Virus record (IMG/VR): IMGVR_UViG_2778261303_000003 | Length of the DNA stretch: 11,130 nucleotides | Strand: one strand, 5' to 3' | Source: a virus | Taxonomy: Duplodnaviria > Heunggongvirae > Uroviricota > Caudoviricetes | In this document: positions 10,093 to 10,906 of the stretch, in pieces | How the letters are laid out: each line of letters starts with the position of its first letter | How positions within the stretch are numbered: position 1 is the stretch's first letter | Program-made: the position numbers and the translations under genes | The notes under the pieces: generated by a model | The model's database searches: none | What the model saw: the letters and a program-made list of their open reading frames with translations, nothing else | What the model was told of the DNA's origin: nothing

Positions 10093-10192
10093 AGAACCTC
10101 CTTAGTACATGCAATTATTATCACCGCTAGAGGTAAAACAGTCAACACGCACGGTGTTAGATATTTATCCCTTGCGGTGATAGATTTAATGT
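10093..10192. promoter_or_regulatory. Right operator OR1-OR2-OR3 with divergent pR (towards cro) and pRM (towards cI)
   Basis: 17-bp operator-like sites at 10119-10135 (OR1-like, TATCACCGCTAGAGGTA), 10143-10159 (OR2, CAACACGCACGGTGTTA) and 10166-10182 (OR3, TATCCCTTGCGGTGATA); pR -35 TTGACT and -10 GATAAT readable on the - strand; cI starts essentially leaderless. Confidence 0.85.
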
Positions 10193-10906
10193 ATGAGCGC
10201 AAAAAAGAAACCGTTAACACAAGAGCAGCTTGAGGACGCACGTCGCCTTAAAGCTATTTATGAAAAAAAGAAAAATGAACTTGGCTTATCTCAGGAATCT
10301 GTCGCAGACAAGATGGGGATGGGGCAGTCAGGCGTTGGTGCTTTATTTAATGGTATCAATGCATTAAATGCTTATAACGCCGCATTGCTTGCAAAAATTC
10401 TCAACGTTAGCGTTGAAGAATTTAGCCCTTCAATCGCCAGAGAAATCTACGAGATGTATGAAGCGGTTAGTATGCAGCCGTCACTTAGAAGTGAGTATGA
10501 GTACCCTGTTTTTTCTCATGTTCAGGCCGGGATGTTCTCGCCTGAGCTTAGAACCTTTACCAAAAGTGATGCGGAGAAATGGGTAAGCACAACTAAAAAA
10601 GCCAGTGGCTCTGCATTCTGGCTTGAGGTTGAAGGTAATTCCATGACCGCACCAACAGGCTACAAGCCAAGCTTTCCTGACGGGATGTTAATTCTTGTTG
10701 ACCCTGAGCAGACTGTTGAGCCTGGTGATTTCTGCATAGCCAGACTTGGTGGTGACGAGTTTACCTTCAAGAAACTGATCAGGGATAGCGGTCAGGTGTT
10801 CCTACAACCACTAAACCCACAATACCCAATGATCCCATGCAATGAGAGTTGTTCCGTTGTGGGGAAAGTTATCGCTAGTCAGTGGCCTGAAGAGACGTTT
10901 GGGTGA
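10193..10906 (+). CDS. cI: CI repressor (lambda-type, with a few substitutions relative to canonical lambda as I recall it)
   Basis: 237-aa [73 protein letters not shown]... with the LexA-like C-terminal domain (Ala-Gly cleavage site, Ser/Lys dyad region). Confidence 0.97.

Follow-up and report, generated by a model that had tools for sequence, protein, structure and literature searches.

The switch regions closest to the one described here are those of phage lambda (NC_001416) and of wild phages with lambda immunity, whose annotated "immunity region" records are deposited as EF120455-EF120461. One of these phages, mEp332 (immunity region EF120456; full genome PV340541), has been under study since 1999-2007; it belongs to lambda's immunity group, is maintained stably as a prophage in MG1655, and can be induced with mitomycin C (PMC3442831). 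Two others, HK244 and HK542 (EF120457 and EF120458), are further points of reference for the locus. The interval between cI and N is a known hotspot, in which the accessory genes are mosaic (PMC8585504 and PMC7067206, both citing Degnan et al. 2007).

We analyzed a stretch of 11,130 nucleotides (the window), which corresponds, in reverse orientation, to the right arm of a phage or prophage of the lambdoid type. Its features are listed below by position; within the intergenic switch region, operators and promoters were transferred from the NC_001416 and EF120456 annotations.

Left part of the window: lysis genes.
3562-4644, plus strand: Gram-negative porin of 360 aa (Pfam Porin_1, E=1e-152).
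4833-5231, minus strand: Q.
6525-7112, minus strand: phage Dam-type N6-adenine methyltransferase in the nin region (Pfam Dam, E=9e-65).
7850-8551, minus strand: P.
8548-9447, minus strand: O.
Between O and cro in the gene order: cII.
9892-10092, minus strand: cro (Pfam Cro PF09048, E=5.9e-35; alignment to lambda).
10093-10192: cro-cI intergenic switch region (OR).
10110-10145, minus strand: pR, with -35 TTGACT (10145-10140), a 17-bp spacer, -10 GATAAT (10122-10117), and +1 at 10110.
10119-10135: OR1, TATCACCGCTAGAGGTA, matching lambda's TATCACCGCCAGAGGTA at 16 of 17 positions.
10143-10159: OR2, CAACACGCACGGTGTTA, identical to lambda.
10158-10193, plus strand: pRM, with -35 TAGATA (10158-10163), -10 TAGATT (10181-10186), and +1 at the A of the cI ATG (10193), after the EF120456 annotation.
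10166-10182: OR3, TATCCCTTGCGGTGATA, identical to lambda.
10193-10906, plus strand: cI repressor of 237 aa with HTH_3 and Peptidase_S24 domains (alignment, Pfam, and PDB match).
10808-10818: putative mosaic (recombination) junction inside the 3' end of cI, placed from the mismatch pattern.
10957-10999, plus strand: start of an HK244/HK24405-type accessory gene in the slot equivalent to that of rexAB; 14 codons, then IS1.
11000-11130, minus strand: end of an IS1 element, with terminal repeat GGTAATGACTCCAACTTATTGAT and transposase C terminus; it runs past the end of the window.

The nearest relatives of the window as a whole are phages ev243 and mEp332 and E. coli prophages (including those of CEA224S and ECO2947), at ∼97% identity, and none of the complete E. 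coli genomes matches the whole window above that level. Scans of the window for tRNA genes and for Rfam families returned no matches. The porin gene, placed between Q and the lysis genes, runs opposite to the late operon and is a typical lambdoid "moron"; its counterparts in ev243, ev099, and other genomes are annotated as OmpC/OmpD/NmpC-like.

To compare the immunity region with lambda, we made an ungapped alignment of window positions 9892-10906 to NC_001416 37227-38241 (reverse complement). Over these 1015 bp, there were 33 mismatches and no indels. Thirty of the 33 lie inside 10093-10906, with 6 in the intergenic region and 24 in cI; the remaining three are synonymous cro differences (9955, 10003, and 10036), and all 66 of 66 Cro residues are those of lambda Cro. 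In cI, the 24 nucleotide differences comprise 17 synonymous and 7 nonsynonymous changes, and the encoded CI is 97% identical to lambda CI (230 of 237 residues). Counting Met as residue 1, the seven substitutions are T3A, K71N, G125S, R129K, D139G, S157Y, and A174T. Architecture and spacing are the same as in lambda, as are Cro, OR2, OR3, and the promoter hexamers. Downstream of cI, by contrast, lambda's rexAB has been replaced in the window.

A sequence-only reading of this DNA had described the region as lambda-like but not canonical lambda. The deposited reference bears this out: the region is 96.7% identical to lambda, the differences are real, and the lambda sequence used for that comparison was accurate. 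The reading had listed about seven CI residue differences, and the alignment yields exactly seven, the same ones; it had also pointed to a divergent OR1-like site, and here, a single change is found, at 10128. Its mention of further changes in the pR spacer and cro leader was right for the spacer (10139) and the leader (10094), but two of the positions, 10115 and 10116, belong strictly to the pR discriminator rather than to the leader. The sixth intergenic change, at 10190 (-3 of pRM), is an addition to that list. These are exact differences, confirmed in the deposited reference, and the question of chance does not arise.

We then considered where the changes fall relative to the operators and promoters. 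The three 17-bp operators keep lambda spacing, with no indels, and overlap the divergent promoters pR and pRM. A promoter scan finds pR intact (TTGACT-17-GATAAT), and both -35 and both -10 hexamers of the two promoters are unchanged from lambda. The change at 10139 falls on spacer base 1 of pR, next to the -35 hexamer, that at 10094 lies 2 nt upstream of the cro ATG, and that at 10190 is the only pRM difference. In lambda orientation, the pR discriminator reads AA at -6/-5 (10116 and 10115), where lambda has GG. RNA polymerase (RNAP) contacts the nontemplate-strand G-6 of the lambda PR discriminator base specifically (PMC4593229), and because this base is replaced in the window, the change of G-6/G-5 to A,A may modestly affect open-complex stability.

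The sole difference in OR1, at 10128, is position 8' of the nonconsensus half. In the numbering of PMC2194778, in which T3...A19 corresponds to TACCTCTGGCGGTGATA, it converts G10-C32, the innermost base pair of that half, to A-T. The experimental ΔΔG for CI binding given there for this substitution is +0.4 kcal/mol (PMC2194778, Table 3), roughly a twofold change; the ΔΔG values in that paper go back to Sarai and Takeda's systematic base-substitution data. Substitutions at critical positions of the consensus half, by comparison, cost 2.5-3.7 kcal/mol (PMC2194778). The N-terminal arm of the monomer on the nonconsensus half is unresolved in the crystal structure (PMC2194778), which is consistent with tolerance at OR1 8'. 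Position 8 of the nonconsensus half also varies across the operators themselves, being T in OR3 and C in OR2.

The repressor has the domain layout of the self-cleaving LexA/CI type, with an N-terminal helix-turn-helix (HTH_3, E=2.6e-11) and a C-terminal Peptidase_S24 domain (E=4.6e-29), and its best PDB match is lambda repressor itself (3BDN, E=1e-151). The Ala-Gly of a QAG motif, the Ser of EGNSMT, and the Lys of FTFKKL are all conserved at their lambda positions; in lambda CI, the Ala-Gly is the cleavage site and the Ser and Lys form the catalytic dyad. Gln33, Gln44, Ser45, and Asn55, the helix-turn-helix contact residues in standard numbering, are unchanged from lambda, and so are the arm residues Lys3 and Lys4. 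The dN/dS of cI against lambda is 0.10. The differences that set the region apart from laboratory lambda are natural standing polymorphism on which purifying selection acts.

When phage records were searched by megablast, mEp332 was the best match of the immunity region, at 99.7% over 9880-10902, with the lambda immunity region at 96.7%. CI, Cro, and the entire 100-bp intergenic region of mEp332, including OR1 to OR3, pR, and pRM, are identical to those of the window; its cI gene differs by 5 synonymous changes in the last 90 bp (10819, 10825, 10852, 10903, and 10905). By virtue of this identity in CI, Cro, and OR, the exact allele is documented for lysogeny, SOS response, and lambda immunity. 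In all probability, then, the window carries a functional imm-lambda switch of the mEp332 haplotype, one of several natural cro-OR-cI alleles in circulation among lambdoid phages and prophages of E. coli. The allele is not novel: it is a deposited one (EF120456), of the mEp332-type imm-lambda, and it is widespread in E. coli prophages.

The mechanism is most likely that of the textbook lambda switch, unchanged in kind. By homology to lambda, CI dimers would occupy OR1 and OR2 in a cooperative manner, repressing pR while activating pRM; Cro would be expressed from pR, and OR3 would be the operator that it binds first. On induction, SOS-activated RecA would promote self-cleavage of CI at the Ala-Gly bond through the Ser/Lys dyad. 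The prophage copy present here would be expected, from its sequence, to behave as mEp332 does.

HK244 and HK542 resemble the window in a different way. They share its OR1 allele (T at 10128) and T3A, and over 10808-10999, a span that runs from the 3' end of cI into the accessory gene, they are 100% identical to it. They are without the other six CI substitutions and without four of the six intergenic changes.

To place these alleles among natural phages and prophages, we surveyed two collections. Full-length lambda-type cro-cI is present in 617 of 5426 complete E. coli genomes, and the window's 1015 bp occur at 100% identity in at least 23 of them. With queries of 80 bp, for which the band of at least 99% identity amounts to an exact match, the window's OR1/pR allele was found in 36 genomes and lambda's in 112; other close variants occur in ∼455 genomes. 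IMG/VR loci were gathered by exact-pattern scans, anchored first on OR2 and then on a cI-internal sequence (139 loci). The OR2-anchored scan, from which the counts over 104 full-length loci derive, is biased toward conserved OR2, and the cI anchor left the conclusions unchanged.

OR1 occurs in just two forms among the 139 cI-anchored loci: 98 (70%) carry that of the window and 41 (30%) that of lambda. The lambda sequence is kept at OR2 in 130 of the 139 and at OR3 in 132. At the pR discriminator, T occurs at 10116 in 34 of 139 loci and at 10115 in 45 of 139; the changes at these two positions are ordinary polymorphisms. As an aside on OR2, four natural loci of this set combine a lambda-type cI N terminus with a divergent OR2, CAACATCTGCGGTGTTA, that has 4 central changes, and they also share linked changes at 10111, 10114, 10142, and 10172; this divergent OR haplotype is a rarer one.

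The full-length set gives a matching view of the protein. Of its 104 loci, 89 have T3A and 85 have K71N. The commonest CI is lambda CI with T3A and K71N (39 loci); the seven-substitution CI of the window follows with 11 loci, and third place is shared by lambda's own CI (9 loci) and a form carrying T3A, K71N, R129K, and D139G (9). The complete six-change intergenic haplotype appears as a block in 11 of the 104 loci. These counts mean that several of the "variants" listed by the sequence-only reading are the majority form in the wild and that the laboratory reference is the minority form: lambda's OR1 and its CI residues Thr3 and Lys71 are minority alleles among natural imm-lambda modules. This is a calibration point for anyone modeling wild prophages with lambda parameters; as a discovery it carries little weight.

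We also compared the left operators. The window ends inside IS1 (11130), ahead of any OL, and we used relatives instead (positions 2700-2760 of the mEp332 sequence analyzed and 6283-6343 of that of E. coli 2013C-3264). With OL outside the window, what the pattern informs is the lineage, and only indirectly the window's own sequence. Both OL1 and OL2 of mEp332 and of the 2013C-3264 prophage have G replaced by A at the position equivalent to 8' of OR1, whereas those of HK244 are lambda-type. Among the 109 loci with a detectable OL block, 8' is polymorphic for G and A at OR1, OL1, and OL2, with all 8 combinations present; although just 24 bp separate OL1 from OL2, the four possible gametes were all found, also among 79 unique haplotypes. 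The A alleles of OL occur on at least two haplotype backgrounds, compatible with recombination or recurrence. In loci with a window-type CI and detectable OL, A at OR1, OL1, and OL2 is accompanied by T at position 7 of OL3 in 8 of 8 cases, as expected for a lineage haplotype.

The simplest reading of this variation is that 8' of the nonconsensus half is the main tolerated, near-neutral position of the strong operators, repeatedly hit or shuffled. A tolerated 8' site at OR1, OL1, and OL2 agrees with the asymmetric recognition measured biochemically. A covariation of T3A with operator 8' was considered and rejected: loci with Ala3 carry either allele at each of OR1, OL1, and OL2, and A is seen together with Thr3 as well at both OL1 and OL2. 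A mutational hotspot of the CCAG/CTAG (VSP-repair) type was unsupported over the 1015-bp block under a crude definition of context (odds ratio 2.3, p=0.11).

Could the mEp332 haplotype instead be a re-tuned switch, which keeps lambda's immunity specificity and has another set point for lysogen stability and induction? Such a switch would combine a weaker OR1, OL1, and OL2 (the OL operators as seen in relatives), the GG-to-AA discriminator, the pRM -3 change, and five CI substitutions in the linker and C-terminal domain. The changes are indeed co-inherited, as the 8 of 8 loci with A-A-A and the OL3 T and the six-change block in 11 of 104 loci attest, but any divergent lineage shows co-inheritance. 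Each 8' G-to-A change would be expected to cost ∼0.4 kcal/mol, as for OR1, and the discriminator G-6 is a base that RNAP reads (PMC4593229). Against this, the 8 operator combinations and the pairing of Ala3 with both alleles give no sign of compensatory covariation, and the dN/dS of 0.10 for cI also speaks against re-tuning. We therefore consider a shifted set point unlikely. If it were true, the lambda parameters given in textbooks would be those of a minority allele rather than of the switch typical in the wild.

Far less probable still is a module that is heteroimmune to lambda because its immunity specificity is new or shifted. This reading could appeal to seven CI substitutions, one of them (T3A) in the N-terminal DNA-binding arm, together with one operator change, but the same CI, Cro, and OR are found in mEp332, a member of lambda's immunity group (PMC3442831), by which it is effectively refuted. 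Cro is lambda Cro, OR2 and OR3 are identical to lambda's, and the OR1 change costs 0.4 kcal/mol; in CI, Gln33, Gln44, Ser45, Asn55, Lys3, and Lys4 are kept, and T3A is present in 89 of 104 imm-lambda loci. It is just as hard to credit that the differences arose by decay in a defective prophage or are artifacts of sequencing or assembly in lambda-derived sequence. The IS1 element 94 bp past cI does suggest a resident prophage that is gathering insertions, but cI and cro are intact with no frameshift or nonsense mutation, all 33 differences recur as polymorphisms in many independent phages and genomes, the dN/dS of cI is 0.10, and the module is identical to that of a viable phage, mEp332. Nor does the region look like laboratory lambda, since none of its markers is among the seven CI differences; the cI857 and ind1 changes, at the positions that we presume for them, are absent. 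What remains strongly favored is the functional mEp332-type imm-lambda switch. The sequence-only reading had suggested a possible influence of the operator changes on repressor affinity or immunity behavior; beyond a small effect, this is unsupported, in view of the identity to mEp332, the cost of +0.4 kcal/mol, the majority status of the OR1 allele, and the conserved OR2, OR3, hexamers, and residues.

The window has no mismatches to mEp332 over 9839-10818 and none to HK244 over 10808-10999, and this change of identity from one phage to the other places the mosaic junction within the 3' end of cI. Homology to both lambda and mEp332 ends with cI. In mEp332, cI is followed by a 1038-bp hypothetical gene; in the window, it is followed by an unrelated HK244-type gene, which is cut by IS1. 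E. coli prophages show the arrangement uninterrupted: in that of strain 2013C-3264 (NZ_CP027544), for example, the 1015-bp segment and the 93 bp downstream are 100% identical to the window (93 of 93 positions up to 10999), there is no IS1 at the window's site, and the order is cI, two hypothetical genes, OL, and N.

The IS1 element begins 94 bp downstream of cI, and one of its ends lies within the window. The C-terminal 37 aa of its transposase match positions 95-131 of the 131-position Pfam DDE_Tnp_IS1 profile (E=1.8e-16). The junction between the cI-downstream sequence and IS1 had 0 matches in GTDB representative genomes. The IS1 terminal sequence GGTAATGACTCCAACTTATTGATAGTG also borders an annotated IS1A of E. 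coli ECO2947, which lies downstream of an identical OR allele but at another site and with other flanks.
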